NCBI GenBank assembly: GCA_965261395.1
Contig: OZ253462.1
Location: 4,000,001-4,064,000, forward strand
Reading direction: 5' to 3'
Source: Candidatus Latescibacterota bacterium
GTDB lineage: Bacteria; Latescibacterota; UBA2968; UBA8231
DNA length: 64,000 nucleotides
Part shown: in pieces, positions 5,027-44,621 of the stretch
Numbering within the stretch: the first letter of the stretch is position 1
How the letters are laid out: every line of letters begins with the position of its first letter
Made by a program: the position numbers and the translations under genes
Notes under the pieces: generated by a model
Told to the model about the DNA's origin: nothing
Database searches by the model: none
The model's input: the letters and a program-made list of their open reading frames with translations, nothing else

Positions 5027-5125
5027 GCTGTCGCGGGAAAAATCCCGGAGACGATCCTCCAAGAGGATTCTAAACTCCTCATGTGGTATGACCAAGCAAT
5101 AACACGAATGGGAGATGAGGCATGA
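5027..5125 (+). pseudogene. pglXI: 3' stub of BREX-3 methyltransferase pglXI
   Basis: Different frame reads AVAGKIPETILQEDSKLLMWYDQAITRMGDEA*, matching the BREX-3 methylase C-terminus as I recall it; stop overlaps the next ATG. Confidence 0.7.
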
Positions 5126-7890
5126 AAGAGTGGGGCTGGAACGGTGCGCGTTGGTGGAAGTGTGATTTTCACACGCATACCCCGGCATCCAACGATTATG
5201 GGAAGGGCCAGAAGCAGACGGCTCTTCAGGAGCGATCCCCCAAGGAATGGCTGCTCGACTACATGCGTGCCGGCGTTGATTGTATTGCGATCACAGACCA
5301 TAACACCGGGGCGTGGATCGACGTACTGCGAAACGCCATGGAAGAGCTGATAGAGGATGGCCATTCAGATTACCGCAAACTGTATATTTTTTCTGGAATG
5401 GAAATCTCTATATCTGGCGGAATCCATTTGCTTGCGATTTTCGATCCTTCAAAGACATCTTCGGACCTTGACGCCCTTCGAGGCGCAGTGGAGTATGGAG
5501 GAACGCCGGGGCAAAGCGATGACGTCACACGCAAGGCGTTCGTCGACGTAATCAACACAGTCACTTCAGCCGGAGGTATAGCGATCCCTGCTCACGTGGA
5601 TGAGGAAAGTGGGCTTTTTCATCGACAGAAGGGGAATACACTAGATCAGGCATTGAACTGCAAAGATATCTTCGCCATGGAGTTGGTGGACCCAGCGTCT
5701 GAGAAACCACAGCTTTATATTGACAAAGGCCTACGCTGGGCTGAAATCCTTGGTTCAGACTCCCATCATCCTTCCGGTGTCGCGGGACAGTCATATCCGG
5801 GCAGCCACTTTACTTGGGTCAAGATGGGGTCGCCCAGCGTGGAGGGATTGCGGTTAGCCTTGTTGGACGGAGAGCTTTCCGTACGTCGGTCCGACCAGGA
5901 TACGGATGACCCAAACGAACACGCACCGTTGGTGTTGGATTCTATTGAGGTTTCGCAAGCGCGCTACATGGGTTGCTCCCAAATCTTCACTATTGGGTTC
6001 AACCCATGGTTCAACGCTATCATCGGAGGCCGAGGCACAGGTAAATCGACTGTTGTCGAGTTCCTTCGTACTGCCCTTCGACGGGAGGCTGAATTGCCGG
6101 AGACGTTGCAACCGGAGTTCGAACAGTATAACCGAGTCTATCAAGACCGAGAAGACAGCGGACTGCTTACAGAAGATGCTGCCATCCGAGTGATTTGCCG
6201 AAAAGACAGCGACCGGTTTCGCGTCCAGTGGAATAAGGCCGGCGGCCTTGAACCTATTGAACAAGAAGTGAATGGACAATGGCAGCGCGCAGAAGGCGAT
6301 ATTCAGCAACGATTTCCCGTGCGAATCTACAGTCAGAAGCAAGTGTTCCAACTCGCCAGAACTCCGCTTGCGTTGCTTAAAAATATCGATGAGGCCCCAG
6401 AGGTTGGTTACCATTCTTGGTCTGAAAAATGGAAAGTGCAGGAAAGCCGCTTTCTTTCTCTGCGTGCTAAGGCTAGAGAAATCAAGGTCGGTCCTGGCGA
6501 GGAGCAGCGTCTTCGGGGAGAGCTGGACGACGTGGAACGAAAACTGGCGATTTTTGAACAGTCGGGACACACCGAAATCCTAAAGTCCTTCCAAAAACGG
6601 AAACGCCAGCAGCGGGATGTCGAGGTATGGGAAGAAAGCTGGACTGGCGTGGGAGAGCAGTTGCGCGAAGTCGCGGCTGAAATAGTACCGGATCTGCTGG
6701 ATGAAACTTCTTTCGACTCAGATGCAGCGTCAGACAATGAATTGCAGAGACGTGCTGCTAAGACGCACGACCATCTAAACAAAATCCGCAAAGCGGTCGA
6801 AGTGCTTGCATCGCAAGCGGATGACATTGTCATCGAGTGGCAGAAAAGCAGGGATGAGTCGTCTTGGAAACAGAGCGTTGAGGCTGCCGCGCAAGCCTAC
6901 CAGGAATTGACAGAGAATCTGTCCCGAGAAGGGGCTGGCGACCCTGCGGCCTACGGCGAACTTGTACAGCGTCGGCAAGTCATTGAGCAACGGCTTTCGG
7001 AAGTGGACGAACGTAAAAAACAGGTTGATGATCTGAATAATCAGGCAGATGCACACTTGCAGCATTTGCTGGAAATTCGCCGGGAGTTGACGGCGTCTCG
7101 TCGATCATTTCTCAATTCCGTCCTAAGCGACAACCCATATATCCAGATACAGGTCGCCCCTTATGGTGCCCGCGAGACGGTCGAAAGCGAGTTTCGCCGA
7201 TTGCTCCAAAGAGAGGATGGGACGTTTGAGAAAGACATTGGATCGCCGAATGACGGGGGATTGCTTGGCGAACTTTATGAGCAGGATGCCGGTGCCGAGG
7301 TGATTGAAGAGAATCTTTTGAACATCAAGACCCGTGTCACAGAGATCGCGTTGGGTGAATACGGCACGGGAACAGTGGCAGATCGGCGTTTTGCCAACCA
7401 TGTAGGCAATCTCCCGCCTGAAGCTATTGATCGCCTTGACCTGTGGTTTCCAGAGGATTCTTTAGAGGTCCAATACAGCGCAAGGGGCGATGGACAGCGT
7501 TTTCGCTCAATACAAGAAGGTTCGCCTGGTCAGAAGACCGCAGCGCTCTTGGCGTTTCTGCTTTCCTACGGAAACGAACCACTGATCTTAGACCAGCCGG
7601 AGGACGATTTGGACAACCACCTGATCTACGGTTTGATCGTGACCCAATTGCGGGCGATCAAACGCCGTCGGCAGGTCATTGTGGTCACGCACAACGCGAA
7701 TATAGCCGTCAACGGTGACGCCGAATTGGTAGTAGCCCTCACAGCACGCGGCAGGGAAACGCAGAAAGAGTGCGAAGGCAGCCTGCAAGAGCAACAGGTG
7801 AGAGAGACCATTTGTGCAGTGATGGAGGGTGGTCGTAAGGCCTTTGAGGATCGGTATCGCCGCATTGCGCTGGAAGGACGCTATGTTTAA
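5122..7890 (+). CDS. PHP phosphoesterase fused to SMC/ABC-like ATPase (Ppl/TrlF-like defence protein)
   Basis: PHP motifs DFHTH, ITDHN, PAH, GSDSH; Walker A GGRGTGKS, coiled coil, SPGQ, ILDQPEDDLD, VTHN. Confidence 0.88.
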   Translation: MKEWGWNGARWWKCDFHTHTPASNDYGKGQKQTALQERSPKEWLLDYMRAGVDCIAITDHNTGAWIDVLRNAMEELIEDGHSDYRKLYIFSGMEISISGGIHLLAIFDPSKTSSDLDALRGAVEYGGTPGQSDDVTRKAFVDVINTVTSAGGIAIPAHVDEESGLFHRQKGNTLDQALNCKDIFAMELVDPASEKPQLYIDKGLRWAEILGSDSHHPSGVAGQSYPGSHFTWVKMGSPSVEGLRLALLDGELSVRRSDQDTDDPNEHAPLVLDSIEVSQARYMGCSQIFTIGFNPWFNAIIGGRGTGKSTVVEFLRTALRREAELPETLQPEFEQYNRVYQDREDSGLLTEDAAIRVICRKDSDRFRVQWNKAGGLEPIEQEVNGQWQRAEGDIQQRFPVRIYSQKQVFQLARTPLALLKNIDEAPEVGYHSWSEKWKVQESRFLSLRAKAREIKVGPGEEQRLRGELDDVERKLAIFEQSGHTEILKSFQKRKRQQRDVEVWEESWTGVGEQLREVAAEIVPDLLDETSFDSDAASDNELQRRAAKTHDHLNKIRKAVEVLASQADDIVIEWQKSRDESSWKQSVEAAAQAYQELTENLSREGAGDPAAYGELVQRRQVIEQRLSEVDERKKQVDDLNNQADAHLQHLLEIRRELTASRRSFLNSVLSDNPYIQIQVAPYGARETVESEFRRLLQREDGTFEKDIGSPNDGGLLGELYEQDAGAEVIEENLLNIKTRVTEIALGEYGTGTVADRRFANHVGNLPPEAIDRLDLWFPEDSLEVQYSARGDGQRFRSIQEGSPGQKTAALLAFLLSYGNEPLILDQPEDDLDNHLIYGLIVTQLRAIKRRRQVIVVTHNANIAVNGDAELVVALTARGRETQKECEGSLQEQQVRETICAVMEGGRKAFEDRYRRIALEGRYV

Positions 7891-36067: not shown

Positions 36068-36625
36068 TCAACGTGCTCGCTCCCGGGCAATCTGCCTGCC
36101 TGCGCCCGTCACGTTTTGACGGTACCGAACGAGATCTACGCTTGCCAAAAAATGGTTGGCAATCTGTTCCTTGGGCATTCCACGGCGTAATGCCCAAAGC
36201 AGACCCTCTCGCGTTATCTGAAGGCAGCCCCCCATGTAGCGCGCCTCTTCTTCCTGCTCGTTGTCATAGCTTCTGAGAGACCCGTTTATCCCTGAGTTGG
36301 CAGCCGGATGTTTGCAGATGATGTGGGCGATCTCATGCATAATATCGCTTTCCTGTCGCGGCCTTGAATGAGTCGAATTGTGGACAATGAATACTCGATC
36401 CTGTTCAGGGATCACCACAGCTCCAGCCGACCACTTTGAGTCGCGATTCGACAACCATCCGGAATGCAATGGATCTAGACCTGGTATTTCATCAGGAGTC
36501 ATTACGTGAATACCAAGGTGCTCAGCAAGGGATTTGGCTGGAAGCGGCTGACTGTCACAGATAGCGAGCGCTTGACGGTAGTCCCGAGCCTGCTGTTCCG
36601 CTTGTGTCTTGAATCCTCGCTTCAT
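36068..36625 (-). CDS. ImmA/IrrE family metallo-endopeptidase (CapP/ImmA-like)
   Basis: HEIAH zinc motif, downstream EEEA. Confidence 0.88.
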   Translation of the reverse strand: MKRGFKTQAEQQARDYRQALAICDSQPLPAKSLAEHLGIHVMTPDEIPGLDPLHSGWLSNRDSKWSAGAVVIPEQDRVFIVHNSTHSRPRQESDIMHEIAHIICKHPAANSGINGSLRSYDNEQEEEARYMGGCLQITREGLLWALRRGMPKEQIANHFLASVDLVRYRQNVTGAGRQIARERAR

Positions 36626-36633
36626 GGAATGCC

Positions 36634-36996
36634 CTATATCTCACCCCGTTTGCCCGCGTCATAGAGCGCTCGGAACGCCGCCGACAGCGCTTGGACGGTC
36701 TTGGGCGGAAGTTCACGATCTGCGCGCAGATGCGCCTCAACTACGTCGGGCGTGCTGACGGCCCTCGCTGAAGGGGTTACATCGGCGATTCCTTCCGTAA
36801 ACTCATCAGGTGAAAACCCAAGCCATTGACAAAGGCGAAGAAACGAAGCCAGATCCGGGAGCCTACCCGCCTCAACTCGCGACAATGTGGAAGCGCTAAT
36901 GCCCCCGATTTCTTTTGCTGTCTCCCGTAAGCCCTTATTTTCTCTCTTCTTACGGATTTCAACGGCCAACTTTCTCACGTCGATGGTCTCGGTCAT
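36634..36996 (-). CDS. XRE-family HTH regulator (CapH/ImmR-like)
   Basis: LRETAKEIGGISASTLSRVEAG; RBS AGGAGG. Confidence 0.9.
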   Translation of the reverse strand: MTETIDVRKLAVEIRKKRENKGLRETAKEIGGISASTLSRVEAGRLPDLASFLRLCQWLGFSPDEFTEGIADVTPSARAVSTPDVVEAHLRADRELPPKTVQALSAAFRALYDAGKRGEI

Positions 36997-37064
36997 CGCT
37001 AGCCTCCTCCTGTTTCTTTGTCTTCAAGATAATCAAATAGTCTCATCCGCGAAACAAAAACCAC

Positions 37065-37093
37065 TTGTGCAACGATATTGAAGTTGCTATATT
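37065..37093 (+). promoter_or_regulatory. Sigma70-type promoter of the ubiquitin-like operon
   Basis: TTGTGC-N17-TATATT. Confidence 0.55.
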
Positions 37094-37106
37094 CCCTCTT
37101 GCGACG

Positions 37107-37124
37107 CGTTGCATGTGTGCAACG
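37107..37124. promoter_or_regulatory. Palindromic operator CGTTGCA-N4-TGCAACG
   Basis: Perfect 7-bp inverted repeat just downstream of the promoter; half-sites overlap the -35 and -10. Confidence 0.6.
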
Positions 37125-37154
37125 ACACCTACTCCTTCGGAGGAATAAGAGATC

Positions 37155-37343
37155 ATGCCCAAGGTATTCAAGCCAGGACAGGACGCACCGGCATCAGGTC
37201 AATACGAGGAAATCGGACCTCGTGATGGAAAAACAGGCCATGAGGTGACATCCAACAAGGGACAGCCATTGCCACCGACTCGGGGACCGGGGCGGAGCTA
37301 CATCCTTGTAGACCGGAGTCGAAACAAGTCTGGGAGGGGATGA
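37155..37343 (+). CDS. YjzC-like small protein
   Basis: KPGQDAPASGQY...GPR...LPPT; RBS GGAGG. Confidence 0.75.
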   Translation: MPKVFKPGQDAPASGQYEEIGPRDGKTGHEVTSNKGQPLPPTRGPGRSYILVDRSRNKSGRG

Positions 37344-37393
37344 TTCCAGCGCATTCTTAAGGGGAGCCTATTCATATTCATAAGGAGAGACAA

Positions 37394-37927
37394 ATGGATA
37401 CTGCTATCGACAAACAAAATTTCGCGGACGAAATCGTGGATATTGAGATTTTCACGGCTGAGGGCAGGAAAGTTCCCGACTACTGTAAAGGCTACCTGAT
37501 CCGCATAAATGAGCAGAAGTATATCGTGGAGAAACCTACGGTGACTCGTGAGGAGGTAGTACGAATTGCCAAGTTTGATCCATCTGAGGATGCCTGTGTC
37601 CGCGTCTACATACATGGATCGAGGCCCCGAGTGCTCCAGCCGGGCGAAGAGGTTGACCTGACCTTACCGGGCATTGAGCACTTCCAAGTAGACAAGGAGT
37701 GCATCGTCAAGGTGAAGGTGAACACCACGACCTTTGAACTCGCAGTCCCGACGACCGGTAAGAAGGTAAAGCAGGCCGCTATTGAAGCTGGCGCGAAAAT
37801 TGAGCTTGACTTCGTTCTCTACTTGGAGCTCAAGGACGGGCCGCCGGAGCAGATTGATGACGACGAGGTAGTGTTCTTAGATGAGGGTGCCTGTTTCAAC
37901 GCTGTGTCGGGCGACGACAATTCCTAG
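37394..37927 (+). CDS. Multi-ubiquitin (two beta-grasp) domain protein, BubA-like
   Basis: Two repeats of the type YxIxIN.../VxVN... with VDL...EHF; ends SGDDNS; RBS AAGGAG. Confidence 0.78.
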   Translation: MDTAIDKQNFADEIVDIEIFTAEGRKVPDYCKGYLIRINEQKYIVEKPTVTREEVVRIAKFDPSEDACVRVYIHGSRPRVLQPGEEVDLTLPGIEHFQVDKECIVKVKVNTTTFELAVPTTGKKVKQAAIEAGAKIELDFVLYLELKDGPPEQIDDDEVVFLDEGACFNAVSGDDNS

Positions 37928-37930
37928 ACG

Positions 37931-38338
37931 ATGGCACTCAAACCCGCAGTTGAAGAGGCCATCAAGGACCTACAAAAAGCCTTCCCGGAGTCTGTTGTTA
38001 GTCCTACTGAAGATGGTCAAGGCGGAGCCCACATAGTGATCGAACCAGTACCGCTCGATACCCAAGTCTTCGTCCACAGCGAGACTTGGGGCGGATTCGA
38101 CCTGAGCTTCAACCTCCCGTATGCCGATGTCTATCCGATTTACGTCCGGTCGGACCTCGCCCGGCGCGATGGTCGGGAACTCAGGGATACAAGCGAAGGC
38201 TTGCACCCCGACCAGAGTTTCCAAGGCCGCTCCGCCTTGATGCTTTCCCGTCGCTCGAACAACCGCGATCCTGAGCACGACAAGCCCCACTTGAAGGTGC
38301 TCAGGGTTCTCGAATGGCTAAGGAGGTGGCCGGGGTGA
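37931..38338 (+). CDS. Prokaryotic E2-like protein, BubB-like, cysteine-free
   Basis: Located between Ubl and E1; P.AD.YP motif, LSRRS motif, terminal amphipathic helix. Confidence 0.72.
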   Translation: MALKPAVEEAIKDLQKAFPESVVSPTEDGQGGAHIVIEPVPLDTQVFVHSETWGGFDLSFNLPYADVYPIYVRSDLARRDGRELRDTSEGLHPDQSFQGRSALMLSRRSNNRDPEHDKPHLKVLRVLEWLRRWPG

Positions 38339-39765
38339 CCGATTTCGACCTGATTCTGCCGGCAAAACTCAAGAGCGACCTCTTTGCTCATCTCTTTCCC
38401 GGAGATGGCGACGAACATGGGGCCATAATCTCTGCCGGTGTCGTACATACTGATAGGGGCCTTCGACTTCTAGCTCGGGATCTGTTCTTGGCCGAAGACG
38501 GGGTCGATTACATTCCCGGAGAGCGTGGCTATCGAATGCTCACACCACGCTTTGTGATGGAAAAATCCCTCAATTGTCGGGACCAGAAGCTAGCATACTT
38601 GGCTATACATAATCATGGCGAAGGGGAGTCCGTCAGTTTTAGCGATGTGGACCTTGCTTCGCACGAACGTGGGTACCCCGCTCTGGTGGACATCTTGCAG
38701 GGACAGCCCGTTGGAGCCCTCGTTTTCGCTAGATATGCGGTCGCTGGAGATCTCTGGCTTCCAAGTGGTGGGCGTACCACGCTGCGAGAGGGTAGAGTTG
38801 TAGGAGGCTCCATCGAGTGCTTATATCCAAACCCGCCGCCGGCTCCTCCAAGTGTAGATTTGACCTATGATCGGCAGGCACGGCTCTTCGGTGACCGAGG
38901 GCAATCGCTCCTCAATGACGCAAAGATAGGAATCATCGGTGCTGGAGGCGTGGGGGCTCTCCTAGTGCTCTATATGGCCCGTCTCGGGGTAGGCCACATG
39001 GTCGTTGTGGATCCAGACCGCATCGACATCACCAATCTTTCTAGAGTCCCTGGTGCTACGCGCTTCGATGCAAGGACTTGGCTCACCGCAGGGGGGCGGC
39101 CTGAGTGGCTCCAAAGCTTCGGGCGTCGAATCTCTGCCCGCAAGGTGGACATTATGCGGCGTGTTGCCCGCCGAGCCAACCGGGATATTTGGTTTGAGGG
39201 CATCTTCGGAGATGTCGTGGATGACGCCGTAGCGATGCGGTTTAGAGACTGCGATTTCCTATTTCTGGCTGCGGATACCCACCAAGCAAGGCTCGTCTTT
39301 AACGCGCTCGTTCACCAGTACCTCATTCCTGGTGTTCAGGTTGGCTCCAAAATCTCTGTCGATAGGGCCTCTGGCGAGATTAATGACGTGTTTTCGGTCG
39401 TGCGTCCAGTCATTCCAGATTCTGGATGCCTTTGGTGCGCGAAGCTCATAGATCCGGCCCGTTTGGCGGAGGAATCGCAGCCAAAAGAGGAACGAGAGCG
39501 TCAGAGTTACATTGAGGAAGTTCCTGCACCGAGCGTAGTGACGCTGAATGGTATCGGTGCGAGCCATGCTGCCAATGAGTTTCTTTTTTCTTGGACTGGA
39601 CTTAGGCTTCCGGTCTCTGAGGAACTGTACCTATACTACCAGCCACGGGAGCGAAAGGGAATGATGCCAAAACCTTTACGTAAGGATGCCTGCACAGAGT
39701 GTGGGATAGGAACGGAAAGCCGACGGGCACGTGGCGACAGCACAGATCTACCGACACGGTGGTAG
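38335..39765 (+). CDS. JAB/MPN peptidase fused to ThiF/E1 adenylyltransferase, BubCD-like
   Basis: GTG start with AAGGAGG; E...HNH-x8-SxxD; YDRQ, GAGGVG, DPD..TNLSR, CLWC, CTEC. Confidence 0.85.
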   Translation: MTDFDLILPAKLKSDLFAHLFPGDGDEHGAIISAGVVHTDRGLRLLARDLFLAEDGVDYIPGERGYRMLTPRFVMEKSLNCRDQKLAYLAIHNHGEGESVSFSDVDLASHERGYPALVDILQGQPVGALVFARYAVAGDLWLPSGGRTTLREGRVVGGSIECLYPNPPPAPPSVDLTYDRQARLFGDRGQSLLNDAKIGIIGAGGVGALLVLYMARLGVGHMVVVDPDRIDITNLSRVPGATRFDARTWLTAGGRPEWLQSFGRRISARKVDIMRRVARRANRDIWFEGIFGDVVDDAVAMRFRDCDFLFLAADTHQARLVFNALVHQYLIPGVQVGSKISVDRASGEINDVFSVVRPVIPDSGCLWCAKLIDPARLAEESQPKEERERQSYIEEVPAPSVVTLNGIGASHAANEFLFSWTGLRLPVSEELYLYYQPRERKGMMPKPLRKDACTECGIGTESRRARGDSTDLPTRW

Positions 39766-39891
39766 GTGCTGAGAAATACGAGCCGATCAAGGATGAGATC
39801 AACTCAATTATAACTGACCTAGCCGTAGCTTGACTGACCAAAGTTCTTCGATTACATACAATAACAGTCGCGGTGAGAAAGGACGGCAACC

Positions 39892-40440
39892 ATGGTCATC
39901 CCCAATCCCATAGTCAAGTTTACCTACGAAGACTACCTGAATACGCCGGAAGATAAGCGCTACGAGCTCCTAGACGGAGAGTTGGTTATGACCCCTGCCC
40001 CCGGAGAACTTCATCAGAGCATTTCCATCCTGCTAGGATCGGAACTGTTTCAATTCGCATCTGAGAATAGCTTGGGGCGGGTCTATCAGGCTCCCTTCGA
40101 CGTGGTGCTATCGGATGTGGACGTGGTGCAGCCTGATCTACTGTTCGTCTCCAATGAGCGCGGCCACATCATCACTCCCGCGAACATTCAGGGCACGCCG
40201 GACTTGGTCGTCGAAATCCTATCCCCCTCCACAGCCGAACGCGATAAGACATTCAAGCGCACGCTATATGCCAAGCACGGCGTGAACGAATACTGGATGG
40301 TGGACACTACCGAAAAAGACATAACAGTCCTGCTACTCGGTGAGCGCGGATACGAGGTCGTGGATACCTACGTCGAAGGAGAGACATTGACTTCGCCGAC
40401 CTTGCAAGGCTTCAGGCTGCATATCGGCGACCTATTTTGA
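39892..40440 (+). CDS. Uma2 family endonuclease
   Basis: YELLDGEL, QPDL, PDLVVEILSPS, EYWMVD. Confidence 0.92.
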   Translation: MVIPNPIVKFTYEDYLNTPEDKRYELLDGELVMTPAPGELHQSISILLGSELFQFASENSLGRVYQAPFDVVLSDVDVVQPDLLFVSNERGHIITPANIQGTPDLVVEILSPSTAERDKTFKRTLYAKHGVNEYWMVDTTEKDITVLLLGERGYEVVDTYVEGETLTSPTLQGFRLHIGDLF

Positions 40441-40462: not shown

Positions 40463-40699
40463 ATGCCAAGGGTCAGCAGCATCCAAGGGCCATATCGGTT
40501 CTTCTTTTACAGCTTTGACTGTCATGAACCTCGGCATGTGCATGTCAGAAGAGAAAAAAGAACATGCAAATACTGGCTTGAACCCATTGCATTGTGCAAA
40601 AATTACGGATTCTCTCCCCATGAACTGAATGGAATTCGGCGGTTGATCCAATCGAACTACGTGATAATTTTGGAGGCTTGGCGTGAACACTGTGAATAA
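40463..40699 (+). CDS. DUF4160 putative toxin
   Basis: YRFFFYS..EPRHVHV. Confidence 0.85.
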   Translation: MPRVSSIQGPYRFFFYSFDCHEPRHVHVRREKRTCKYWLEPIALCKNYGFSPHELNGIRRLIQSNYVIILEAWREHCE

Positions 40700-40949
40700 T
40701 ACGGAACCTCGCATCAAATCCATCAGGATTACTGAGGACTTGATCATCGCTGACTTGTTCGACGGTCGAACAATCAGTGTGCCACTCGTTTGGTCTTGGC
40801 GACTTTCCGATGCAACACCCGCTCAGCGTGAAAACTATGAATTTATCGGCGATGGGCAGGGCGTTCACTGGCCGGATATCGATGAAGACATCAGTGCAGA
40901 AGGCATGTTGATGGGCACACCTGCACAGCCCGCTAAACAGCGTGTGTAA
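40683..40949 (+). CDS. DUF2442 putative antitoxin
   Basis: DGRTISVPL, GVHWPDIDEDIS. Confidence 0.85.
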   Translation: MNTVNNTEPRIKSIRITEDLIIADLFDGRTISVPLVWSWRLSDATPAQRENYEFIGDGQGVHWPDIDEDISAEGMLMGTPAQPAKQRV

Positions 40950-41990: not shown

Positions 41991-42174
41991 TGAAGAACCT
42001 CCCGCAACCTAATTTTATGTAGTTTTAACAGCATGGGAATACTCTATATAGACCAAATAGCCCAACGAAGTAAATGCGGCCGGTTTTTCAGAGAGGAGGC
42101 CAGAGTTCCCAACGCGATTGCGGACTGCCGCCGGGATACTATCTTGATCCAGCAACTGGATGGAGACAATCTGC

Positions 42175-43404
42175 ATGGCAACGAAAACCACCGCTCCCAA
42201 AAAACTCTGGGCTGGCGTCGCAAAAGTCGATATCACCAATACGGCAGCGGACGCGACAGACGATCCGCTCTACGCCGGTATTGCAACAACAACCGCCAAT
42301 GACCCATTATACGCCAAAGCCCTAATCCTGCGCAGTGACCATACCACGGTGGTCCTCGTCACCGTGGACGCCGTGGCGATCGGCGAGATCGGCACCATCG
42401 GCAACGACTATCTGACCAATGTGCGGGCCCAACTGCAAAAAGAGCTGGCAATCGATCCGGCGCATGTGCTGATCAATGCCAGCCACTGCCACGGCGTGGT
42501 CTGCAAAGATGTCGCAGCGCGGACGGTGCAGGCCGTAGAAGCCGCATGGCAGCATATGGTGCCGGTAACAGTCGGCGTCGGCACCGGCCACGAGGACCGG
42601 ATCATGGAAAACCGCCGGCTCAAACTCAAAAATGGCCGTGAAGCGGATATCCGCCGCGCCTACTCGCTCCCGCCCGACGAACAAATCGCCGCGGTCGGTC
42701 CGATCGATCCGCAAATCGGCATCCTGCGGCTGGACAAGGAGGACGGACAGACCCTGGCCGTCCTCTATAATTTCGCCTGCCACCCCATCCAGGGCGTGCC
42801 CAGCGGTGCCAACACCGCAGACCTCAGCGGCTTTGCCTCCAGAGTCATTGAAGACAACATAAGCGACGGTGCCATCGCCTTCTTCTTACAGGGATGTGGC
42901 GCGGATATCAATCCGGTGCTCTATAGGGATATCGACAACCCCCCGGATGCCGAACCTCTGGGGCATATGCTAGGCTTGAGCACCTTGCAGGCGCTAAAGC
43001 ATATCAAGTGCGCGAAAGGCGACCCGCTGAAACTGGTCAACGAGACCCTCGAATTGCCCAGAGCCGACCTGCGAGAAGGCATCGAGGCCCTACGAGCCGA
43101 ACAAATGCGGCTATTGCAGTCTTTACAAGCCACTAGCCTCAACCTGAAGACCTTTGTACCCCTGCTGGTCAAATACAACCTCTCCGGCGAATTTCCCTCC
43201 TATGATGCCCATCGCTATCTGCACGAGAGAAAATTCGCCAGCAAGGGCCTGGACAAACTCGACGCCGACAACAGGCGGAACCTGGATCAGTACATCGCCA
43301 ATATGCATACTATGGAAGAGCTGACCCGGATCCAGATCAACTTGGACCTGCGGAAATACTGCAAAGGTTATAATGTCTATACCCGTCATCTTCGACGCCG
43401 ATAG
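42175..43404 (+). pseudogene. Ceramidase-like protein, probably 3'-truncated
   Basis: ASHCH, ENRR, FACHP, GCGADINP present, but the C-terminal PGE/GY segment seen in the paralogs at 24-27 kb is absent. Confidence 0.55.
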
Positions 43405-43445: not shown

Positions 43446-44621
43446 ATGGCCCAGCGCAAAAAGATCGCCGCCATTATCACCGAATACCGCGTCCCGGCGC
43501 ACGCCGACGTCATTGTCGGCAAGTTCATCAAGGGTTTTCCCACTGACGAGGGCATGCAGGAGCCGCAGGTGGATATCGCCTCCATGTACCTGGACCAGAT
43601 ACCCGACAATGATATCGGCCTACAAGTATCCAAAGAATACGATATACCCGTGTACCAGAGCATCCCCGCGGCGCTGTGTCTGGGTGGCGGCAAATTGGCC
43701 GTCGACGGCGTAATTTCCATTGGCGAACACGGCACGTACGCCTTCAACGAGAAGGGCCAGCACATGTATCCCCGGCGCTTTTTCTTTGAACAGATCTGCG
43801 GCGTTATGGCCACCTCCGGCCGCTCGGTGCCGGTGTTCAGCGACAAGCACCTGTCCTACAACTGGTGCGACGCCAAGTGGATGTACGACCGGGCAGTGGA
43901 ACTGAACGTCCCCTTTATGGCCGGCTCTTCAGTGCCCTTGGGCTGGCGCGACCCCTGGCTCGAACACGAGCTGGATGCCCCCATCGAAGACGCCCTCATG
44001 CTCAGCTTTGGCGGCATTGAGTCCTACGGCTATCACGGCTTTGAGGGCCTGCAGGCCATGGTCGAGCGGCGCCGGGGCGGTGAGACCGGTCTGGCGGCCG
44101 TGCAGTGTTTGGAAGGCGAGGCCGTGTGGCAGGCCGGCGCCGACGGCCTGTGGTCGCGCCAGTTGGCCGCCGCGGCCGCGGCGGCGGGCAAAACCTCGGC
44201 CGAACCCATGGAGGAGGCCTGCGAAAATCCAGCGGCCTTTCTGCTGGAATACAGGGATGGTTTCAAGGCCGCCCTGCTGCACTTGAACGGGTACGTCGAG
44301 GAATGGTCGTACGCGGCCCGCGTCAACGGCCAGGTACAGGCCACGGGCCTGCGCTTGCACGGGCCGCCCTATCCCCACTTCAGCTACCTGGGCCTCAATA
44401 TCCAGGAGATGTTTCTCACGGGCCAGCCGCAGTATCCGGCGGAGCGCACCCTGCTGGTAAGCGGCGGTCTGGACGCCCTGATGGATTCGCGTCACCAGGG
44501 CCATATACGGCTGGAGACGCCGCATTTGGACGTGCAGTACCAGGCCCCCGAAAACAGGCCCATCCGCCCCACCGGACCCCGGCCGCAAGGGGCGAGCACA
44601 GTGCCTTTCGACGGGATTTAG
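43446..44621 (+). CDS. Conserved hypothetical protein, Gfo/Idh/MocA-like fold
   Basis: HADVI, EHG.Y, DKH, MAGSS, YGYH; good RBS. Confidence 0.7.
   Translation: MAQRKKIAAIITEYRVPAHADVIVGKFIKGFPTDEGMQEPQVDIASMYLDQIPDNDIGLQVSKEYDIPVYQSIPAALCLGGGKLAVDGVISIGEHGTYAFNEKGQHMYPRRFFFEQICGVMATSGRSVPVFSDKHLSYNWCDAKWMYDRAVELNVPFMAGSSVPLGWRDPWLEHELDAPIEDALMLSFGGIESYGYHGFEGLQAMVERRRGGETGLAAVQCLEGEAVWQAGADGLWSRQLAAAAAAAGKTSAEPMEEACENPAAFLLEYRDGFKAALLHLNGYVEEWSYAARVNGQVQATGLRLHGPPYPHFSYLGLNIQEMFLTGQPQYPAERTLLVSGGLDALMDSRHQGHIRLETPHLDVQYQAPENRPIRPTGPRPQGASTVPFDGI

Follow-up and report, generated by a model that had tools for sequence, protein, structure and literature searches.

Among the ubiquitination-like systems so far described, those of the Bub type are, to our knowledge, the most divergent. 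Here we consider a locus that resembles them, at positions 36,068 to 39,765 of a 64,000-nucleotide (nt) stretch of a Candidatus Latescibacterota genome (assembly GCA_965261395.1, contig OZ253462.1, forward-strand positions 4,000,001 to 4,064,000). This whole stretch is referred to as the window, and coordinates are counted from its first letter. The locus combines genes for a ubiquitin-like protein (Ubl), an E2-like protein and a fused JAB-E1 protein with a divergent pair of regulatory genes, and we believe, with a probability of roughly 0.7, that it is an inducible cassette for ubiquitin-like protein conjugation and a sister branch of Type I Bub.

The Type I Bub operons, formerly called 6E.1 or DUF6527 operons, are represented by several structures (PDB 9ea4, 9ea8 and 9eae; Ye, Gong, Chambers & Corbett). 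In the Citrobacter system the E1 substitution Y370F or the E2 substitutions S333A/H335A abolish conjugation, the relay was concluded to run via oxyester intermediates, and the JAB-E1 protein BubCD cuts right after a conserved glycine (Ye et al., bioRxiv 10.1101/2024.11.21.623953). The same preprint states that "all Bub operons possess bubE" (DUF6527), heads its Table S1 as one of DUF6527-containing operons, links CapH plus CapP to 31% of Bub operons, and, in its Discussion, credits no Bub operon with phage protection so far (see also PMC13373217). The 6e operons of Iyer, Burroughs & Aravind (2006, PMC1779556) likewise unite a polyUbl, a cysteine-free E2/RWD-like domain and a JAB-E1 fusion, and among them is described an E2-like gene that stands alone between those for the Ubl and the JAB-E1, as seen here. 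They differ from our locus in including a conserved metal-binding protein (later DUF6527); their E2-like domain was regarded as inactive, and the parts of that paper on which we draw do not discuss the C-terminal Ubl tail. CapH/CapP-like pairs have been noted beside 6e systems (Lau et al., bioRxiv 10.1101/2022.04.27.489752).

Two further systems share the enzymology in part. Bil uses a Ubl, sometimes with multiple beta-grasp domains, together with an E2, a JAB and an E1 to conjugate the Ubl to proteins, and is stated to act on phage proteins (Ye et al.); it has a separate JAB, a tandem-adenylation E1 and a catalytic-cysteine domain, whereas in our locus the JAB is joined to one adenylation domain only. 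Type II CBASS, with Cap2 and Cap3, resembles the locus in deploying E1, E2 and JAB activities in a defence setting, but the window lacks an E2-E1 fusion, the E2 being a separate gene, and neither a CD-NTase nor an E3, both already reported missing in a preliminary description of the locus, was found among the window proteins scanned (Pfam, PADLOC, NCBIfam).

The Bub-like core

The preliminary description had read six open reading frames (ORFs) as a complete Bub-type operon under a protease/repressor switch. All six were recovered at the same coordinates and all are intact (lengths in amino acids, aa):

36068..36625, minus strand: ImmA/IrrE-type M78 zinc metallopeptidase bearing the motif HEIAH, 185 aa (Pfam Peptidase_M78, PADLOC capP)
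36634..36996, minus strand: XRE-family helix-turn-helix (HTH) repressor, 120 aa, CapH/ImmR-like (Pfam HTH_3)
36997..37154, no strand: divergent regulatory region, 158 nt, with a palindrome, copies of GTGCAACGA and a TTGC-N6-GCAA core
37155..37343, plus strand: YjzC-like small protein, 62 aa (Pfam PF14168), its gene being the first to follow the promoter region
37394..37927, plus strand: Ubl, 177 aa (Pfam Multi_ubiq, two stretches)
37931..38338, plus strand: BubB-like E2, 135 aa (fold match to Citrobacter BubB)
38314..39765, plus strand: BubCD-like JAB-E1, 483 aa (PDB match to BubCD; Pfam ThiF)

Conservation was judged in relatives found with an E1-alignment scan of one representative genome per species, which confirmed 239; the best 80 were kept for locus counts, and individual loci are cited by L numbers. 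Separate Ubl, E2 and JAB-E1 genes, in that order, occur in 75-76 of these 80 loci across many phyla.

The preliminary description had staked its reading on a beta-grasp Ubl and a UBC-fold E2, and both folds are predicted. The AlphaFold2 model of the Ubl (predicted local distance difference test, pLDDT, 84.5) contains two beta-grasp domains behind a disordered N-terminus of about residues 1-25, and Pfam Multi_ubiq matches the protein in two stretches (8.1e-18). Its best Foldseek match is the E. coli multi-ubiquitin protein 9cd2_A (1.6e-8), and it matches beta-grasp domain 3 in Citrobacter BubA (9ea8_B) with a template-modelling (TM) score of 0.79; the best fold matches are Bub and Bil multi-ubiquitin proteins, from E. 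coli, Methylobacterium and Citrobacter, followed by linear di-ubiquitin and ISG15.

The E2-like protein is far less visible to sequence comparison: Pfam gave no match to the window protein itself, and a PDB sequence search with the single sequence or a profile returned nothing even at E<=10. Among 39 homologues of similar length that were found, Pfam Prok-E2_E is matched by 8 of the 25 aligned family members. The AlphaFold model (pLDDT 88.7) nonetheless adopts the UBC fold, with Citrobacter BubB (9eae_C, TM 0.72/0.75) as its best Foldseek match and eukaryotic E2s next. The protein contains not a single cysteine. Its candidate catalytic residue is Ser106, in the motif LSRRSN, which an hhalign comparison with glycine-type fused E2 domains (96.2% probability) places on the serine of WSRH. 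Ser106 and Arg107 are each kept in 75 of 76 relatives and Arg108 in 70; Asp66, inside the aligned block, is kept in 72 of the 76 and is a possible counterpart of D299, the invariant aspartate of Bub.

The Ubl and E2 genes share one reading frame, the E2 gene beginning one codon past the TAG stop of the Ubl, and the end of the E2 gene overlaps the JAB-E1 gene by 25 nt. Programmed read-through of that in-frame stop was considered and is not claimed, since the gaps and overlaps between Ubl and E2 genes differ among related loci. The TAG-ACG-ATG junction is retained in L002, a Latescibacterota metagenome-assembled genome that is the closest genomic relative (E1 84% identical); its Ubl gene (5083-5620) carries a one-base frameshift, which is either an assembly error or decay.

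For the JAB-E1 protein, identified as such in the preliminary description, the best PDB sequence match is Citrobacter BubCD (2.6e-22), in two stretches that cover the JAB (residues 13-122) and the E1 (residues 205-425), in keeping with a JAB/JAMM peptidase domain at about residues 1-170 and an E1 adenylation domain at about 185-483. Pfam ThiF lies in the C-terminal 300 residues (1.1e-27). Other resemblances are partial: PDB matches to MoeB, ThiF and MccB are weak and confined to the nucleotide-binding part, NCBIfam ThiF and MoeB matches fall far under their cut-offs and cover residues 184-250 only, and PADLOC E1-E2 profiles match only the Rossmann part of the E1 (residues 196-245). In the alignment, the peptidase site of BubCD is matched by the JAMM residues E34, H99, H101, S110 and D113, and the tyrosine of the BubCD stretch GYIT by Y399, on the E1 crossover loop. 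All six residues, as well as four zinc-site cysteines, are invariant in an alignment of 18 E1 homologues; in the genomic relatives H99, H101, S110, D113 and Y399 are each kept in 80 of 80, E34 in 78, and the four cysteines in 78-80. The zinc site sets the window E1 apart from Citrobacter BubCD, which, in the one aligned stretch, lacks the first CxxC. Between C375 and residue 411 cysteine is absent, which leaves the crossover loop cysteine-free, and Tyr399 is the candidate catalytic residue of the E1.

The cassette thus has in common with Type I Bub a Multi_ubiq beta-grasp Ubl (one to three domains in Bub, two here), a cysteine-free UBC-fold E2 with a conserved serine, a JAB with an intact site fused N-terminally to a homodimer-type E1, a cysteine-free crossover loop that bears an invariant tyrosine, and frequent divergent CapH/CapP-like regulators in mobile or defence contexts.

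Departures from Type I Bub

The operon cannot be called complete by the published definition, as it was in the preliminary description, because BubE/DUF6527 is lacking from the window and from all 80 related loci. Pfam found no DUF6527 among 11 window proteins scanned; none was found in 150 flanking ORFs of L001-L036, in 105 plus-strand ORFs that start <=500 nt past the E1 stop in 66 loci, or in 106 flanking ORFs of 80-320 aa in L036-L080; and a search for the Cys/Ser/His spacing of BubE in the 80 loci and the window gave one match, judged spurious. As positive controls, two plasmid operons (L084 and L085) have an annotated DUF6527 gene. Their E1s are 28-30% identical to that of the window, Ubl ends of the glycine type are seen in both (...ANFG and ...FGGGV), and the one E2 translated has the motif FSWH, that is, S-W-H. 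E1 identity to DUF6527-linked E1s is about 28-30%, against >=44% inside the window clade.

A gene annotated as a phosphotransferase stands between the E1 and DUF6527 genes in both of these split operons (L084 4798-6282, L085 4862-6310), the only two viewed, whereas the window clade lacks it. The same annotation lies under the match in eight rows of the plasmid E1 search, seven from Bradyrhizobium and one from the Deinococcus record (L085). The portions of Ye et al. on which we draw do not mention this gene.

The clade itself is widespread. Of 8,000 candidates scored, about 3,600 are JAB-E1 matches at E<=1e-10, and the clade spans Actinomycetota, Chloroflexota, Cyanobacteriota, Acidobacteriota, Pseudomonadota and others, as well as plasmids. 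Apart from the three core genes and the regulators, no further neighbour was found in more than seven related loci. The published Bub catalogue is anchored on DUF6527, and a clade without DUF6527 would therefore have escaped it. We did not find a clade that lacks BubE, ends its Ubl in serine and carries S-R-R in print; Ye et al. was compared as a preprint, and the journal version may cover it. A literature search on the Bub proteins brought up two Corbett preprints as its only relevant results.

The second departure is the C-terminus of the Ubl. In the window the protein ends ...AVSGDDNS before its TAG stop, and an acidic tail of this kind forms the end of the Ubl ORF in 75 of 75 loci: DDNS in 62, HEDS in four, DDDS in four, DDNA in three, and DDHS and DENS in one each. 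The last residue is always small, a serine or an alanine. The residue before the tail, at position -5, is by comparison free to vary, being glycine in 31 of 76 related Ubl ORFs and proline, aspartate, asparagine, alanine, threonine, histidine, valine or serine in the other 45. In five loci the ORF extends a few residues beyond DDNS, fused Ubl-E2 forms of the clade carry DDNS at the junction followed by a variable linker, and the Ubl of a Rhizobium plasmid ends DDDNS. Among the best 150 representatives of a library-wide Ubl search, 50 end in DDNS and 14 in close variants, while a distinct class ends ...QTEG, and fused Ubl-E2 forms occur with either a DDNS-type or a glycine-type junction. Counted from a conserved phenylalanine, the tail serine comes one position earlier than the glycine that ends the ...TEG class. 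Given the variable residue at -5, the near-invariant tail, the small last residue, the extensions past DDNS and the register against the TEG class, we think that the end adenylated by the E1 is the serine of the DDNS tail and not a glycine. A literature search for DDNS in connection with bacterial ubiquitin-like proteins found no publication.

The third departure lies in the E2, at the position of Arg108, which corresponds to the histidine of the Bub S-x-H motif. Histidine is never found there among the 76 relatives, and the clade motif is S-R-R. Mature Bub Ubls finish in a conserved glycine, and the Ubl ORFs of the window clade in [DE][DE]x[S/A]. The tail and the E2 motif would together mark a clade separate from Type I Bub. 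Thus the Bub-type architecture proposed in the preliminary description stands as far as the Ubl, the E2 serine, the JAB-E1 fusion and the tyrosine are concerned, and falls short on BubE, the terminal glycine and S-x-H; the core of that reading holds, but it was silent on the cysteine-free chemistry, the DDNS tail and the S-R-R motif.

Regulators, the YjzC-like gene and the surroundings

The divergent arrangement of the XRE and ImmA-like genes relative to the conjugation genes can be read directly from the sequence, as the preliminary description had it, and both protein families match: HTH_3 over residues 14-66 of the XRE protein (7.8e-9), and Peptidase_M78 over residues 35-169 of the 185-residue ImmA-like protein (8.1e-13; PADLOC capP, 7.5e-5). 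PDB sequence searches gave no match at E<=1 for the latter and weak matches only for the former. Of the 80 related loci, phmmer finds an XRE homologue, oriented away from the Ubl gene, in 44 and an ImmA homologue in 36; Pfam detects M78 domains in additional loci. An HTH repressor with an HExxH peptidase, placed upstream of and opposite to an operon with a palindromic operator, recalls CapH/CapP, ImmR/ImmA and DdrO/IrrE; the window peptidase differs from CapP and IrrE in consisting of little more than the M78 domain, with no room for a linker or a GAF domain, and in size it is nearer ImmA. We regard it as the candidate protease of the switch, and the cassette as probably inducible.

The intergenic region contains a perfect palindrome, CGTTGCA-N4-TGCAACG, at 37107-37124, with a core of TTGC-N6-GCAA at 37109-37122. 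The sequence GTGCAACGA occurs twice (37067-37075 and 37117-37125), the second copy overlapping the palindrome, and has no further exact copy in the window. TTGC-N6-GCAA adjoins the XRE gene in 20 of the 44 related loci that have one, and 23 matches fall in 11.4 kb beside XRE genes against 22 in the other 951 kb, an enrichment of about 87-fold that supports a conserved operator of this XRE repressor family. The sequence TTGTGC-17-TATATT at 37065-37093, picked out by eye as a promoter, matches the -35 consensus at 3/6 positions and is not claimed.

Between the operator and the Ubl gene stands the YjzC-like gene, its ATG preceded by the Shine-Dalgarno-like GGAGGA, a good ribosome-binding site; no terminator is predicted between it and the Ubl gene. 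Pfam YjzC (PF14168) matches the 62-aa protein at 5.5e-7 (30.2 bits against a cut-off of 25), in agreement with the protein atlas, and matches nine of ten aligned homologues. The preliminary description was right that the gene is there, but it is no conserved member of the operon: phmmer found it in none of the 80 related loci, including the closest, L002. Close homologues number only nine in a set of 5.8 billion proteins, and none of the nine was co-located with E2 or E1 matches in what was a crude test, with one contig reported per cluster. Plasmid records with a small, solitary gene of the YjzC family number 55, among them Klebsiella and E. coli plasmids of 4-9 kb; of four such contexts viewed, two had Abi-like and one had GNAT/DUF1778 toxin-antitoxin-like neighbours. 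A general XRE-ImmA-YjzC module was considered and dropped, an M78 peptidase being present in none of these four contexts. Complex predictions of the YjzC-like protein with the JAB-E1, the E2 and the Ubl scored 0.00 against a mark of 0.32, which is silent on binding either way, and a literature search on YjzC returned nothing relevant. We therefore treat the gene as a lineage-specific passenger that has come under the same promoter, not as a conserved part of the cassette.

The slot that it occupies is filled differently elsewhere. In L066 a DUF3892 gene (5053-5331; 7.4e-17) lies between the regulator genes and the Ubl gene, and small ORFs upstream of the Ubl gene in L041 and L006 are unrelated to it and to each other. 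DUF2188 and DUF3892 operons under CapH/CapP-like pairs have been mentioned (Lau et al.), and small proteins placed first after XRE/peptidase switches may be a recurring theme.

As described before, the operon is inserted among metabolic genes, with DUF3604, an MR/MLE enolase-superfamily protein, a 2-hydroxyacid dehydrogenase and a GFO/IDH/MocA oxidoreductase on its flanks. It lies in a low-GC island, the G+C fraction being 0.51-0.57 from about 36000 to about 41000 against about 0.60-0.64 on either side. No tRNA and no flanking direct repeats were found in a search of the window for island boundaries, and no integrase was found among the window proteins scanned. Directly downstream of the operon, still within the island, is a putative nuclease gene of the Uma2 family (39892-40440, plus strand; Pfam 1.4e-35, PADLOC defence candidate PDC-S03 1.9e-41) with a promoter-like site of its own at 39834-39862; this gene occurs in none of the 80 related loci. 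At the island edge, DUF4160 and DUF2442 genes (40463-40699 and 40683-40949, plus strand) overlap by 17 nt and may form a two-gene module. None of these three genes figures in the preliminary description. Two long window ORFs beyond it, 42160-43404 (414 aa) and 43446-44621 (391 aa), both on the plus strand, match no Pfam family at E<=0.01.

The related loci lie in neighbourhoods with restriction-modification, AbiE, RES-Xre, PIN, KAP NTPase and toxin-antitoxin genes, integrases, transposases and a relaxase, and the cassette is found together with ImmA/IrrE and HTH genes on RefSeq-annotated plasmids of Rhizobium, Mycolicibacterium and Nostoc. In four sphingomonad/Caulobacter loci (L058, L059, L067 and L072), where the Ubl tail is HEDS, the gene directly upstream of the Ubl gene on the same strand encodes about 1120 aa, or 977 aa in the case of L058; the only copy scanned, L059 1428-4790, is a fusion of an M78 peptidase domain with a UvrD helicase and a PD-(D/E)XK nuclease. 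In six others (L069, L074, L075, L076, L078 and L080) a conserved convergent gene for a protein of about 526 aa abuts the E1 stop (for example L069 7431-9011, minus strand). L035 has a homologue upstream of its cassette, and the L069 copy, the only one scanned, matches no Pfam family.

Mechanism, alternatives and significance

If the locus is the inducible conjugation cassette that we believe it to be, the XRE repressor would at rest be bound to the TTGC-N6-GCAA operator in the divergent promoter region. A stress signal, by analogy with CapH/CapP either DNA damage or single-stranded DNA, would activate the ImmA-like metallopeptidase and lead to cleavage of the repressor, whose loss would permit transcription of the YjzC-like, Ubl, E2 and JAB-E1 genes. 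The E1 domain would then adenylate the C-terminus of the two-domain Ubl, which may be relayed from Tyr399 on the crossover loop to Ser106 of the E2, in both cases as an oxyester, as shown for Citrobacter Bub, and would finally be attached to lysines of target proteins. The JAB would trim extended or E2-fused Ubl precursors and remove conjugates, and, with no BubE serine protease present, it is probably the sole peptidase of the system. The biochemical steps, the inducing signal and the role, whether anti-phage or general stress, are inferred.

A bolder version of this reading is that the window represents a widespread, undescribed and minimal three-gene sister clade of Bub that does without BubE, in which the Ubl is conjugated via the C-terminal serine of [DE][DE]xS-COOH through a tyrosine/serine oxyester relay, an arginine serves as the helper residue of the E2, and the JAB is the only peptidase. 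Taken in all its parts, this is a tentative proposal, and one that we think somewhat likelier to fail in some particular than to hold throughout.

Several points weigh against our interpretation, in its general or its bolder form. We know of no precedent for a C-terminal serine among conjugated Ubls, and the window Ubl does have a glycine at G173, so that processing there is possible for this protein. The arginine that replaces the invariant histidine of Type I Bub beside the E2 serine means that the activity could differ or be lost, and the oxyester relay would be carried over from a homologue that has only a distantly related E1. The absence of DUF6527 comes from our own ORF calls about 1.3 kb to each side and from a motif search, which a distant copy would escape. 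On the regulatory side, a consensus scan of the intergenic region found no sigma-70 promoter, and the ImmA-like protein, at 185 aa, is too short to hold the GAF domain of CapP, so sensing of single-stranded DNA is not assured. Finally, an anti-phage role has to reckon with the lack of phage protection by Bub operons so far (Ye et al.; PMC13373217).

This last point bears on the strongest of the alternatives, in which the cassette does conjugate the Ubl, for a general DNA-damage or stress response or for the maintenance of a mobile element, and not for anti-phage defence. Pairs of HTH repressors and metallopeptidases control DNA-damage regulons and mobile-element induction, as in DdrO/IrrE and ImmR/ImmA (Lau et al.), no Bub operon has so far protected E. 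coli against phage, and no effector gene is conserved with the cassette in the related loci. At the same time, the neighbourhoods of those loci are rich in restriction-modification, Abi and toxin-antitoxin genes, as is typical of defence islands, and the related Bil acts on phage proteins (Ye et al.). On balance we consider such a role a real contender, though somewhat less likely than not.

A second alternative accepts conjugation and denies the clade its distinctness: the locus would be an ordinary split Type I Bub that has lost BubE or keeps it elsewhere, and DDNS would be a propeptide removed by the JAB, exposing glycine 173. At least 31 rows of Table S1 in Ye et al. are Type I operons in which the Ubl and E2 genes stand apart and the peptidase and E1 are fused, and cleavage by Citrobacter BubCD directly after the conserved glycine is what a propeptide would call for, as is the glycine at -5 in the window Ubl and in 31 of the 76 related ORFs. 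Yet the other 45 ORFs have no glycine there while the tail itself is near-invariant, and a small last residue, serine or alanine, is what one would expect of the residue that is adenylated. DUF6527 is moreover absent from 80 of 80 loci, and the two DUF6527-bearing split operons inspected are glycine-ended, with S-W-H in one E2 and E1s that are only 28-30% identical. We find this explanation unlikely, and prefer that of a sister branch.

It is also conceivable that no conjugation takes place, the E1-like enzyme modifying the Ubl tail in the manner of a ThiF/MoeB sulfur-carrier system or of MccB, with the E2-like protein as an inactive binding module. The E1 retains the four-cysteine zinc site typical of MoeB and ThiF, its nucleotide-binding part is weakly matched in the PDB by MoeB, ThiF and MccB, the tail is not a glycine, and the E2-like domain of 6e operons was called probably inactive (Iyer et al. 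2006). But a sulfur carrier would be expected to look otherwise: the window Ubl is not Gly-Gly-ended, and neither a rhodanese domain nor a sulfur or cofactor gene was found in the operon or beside it. The E2 serine and the E1 tyrosine are conserved at the positions of residues that are experimentally active in Bub, the JAB peptidase fused to the E1 is intact, and Bub homologues form conjugates (Ye et al.), all of which makes this very improbable. That the operon is a decaying remnant without function is hardly credible, for although its family-defining gene is lost and the Ubl gene of L002 is frameshifted, the six window ORFs are intact, gene order is conserved, and 70-80 of 76-80 relatives, from many phyla, retain the candidate catalytic residues.

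In the cases inspected, the loss of BubE, the non-glycine end of the Ubl and the change from S-R-H to S-R-R in the E2 travel together, and these co-travelling changes amount to a natural experiment on what BubE recognizes. The clade likewise puts to the test the rule that Ubls end in glycine, asking how much of that rule is chemistry and how much is history. The cassette also offers a minimal, three-protein system for reconstitution.

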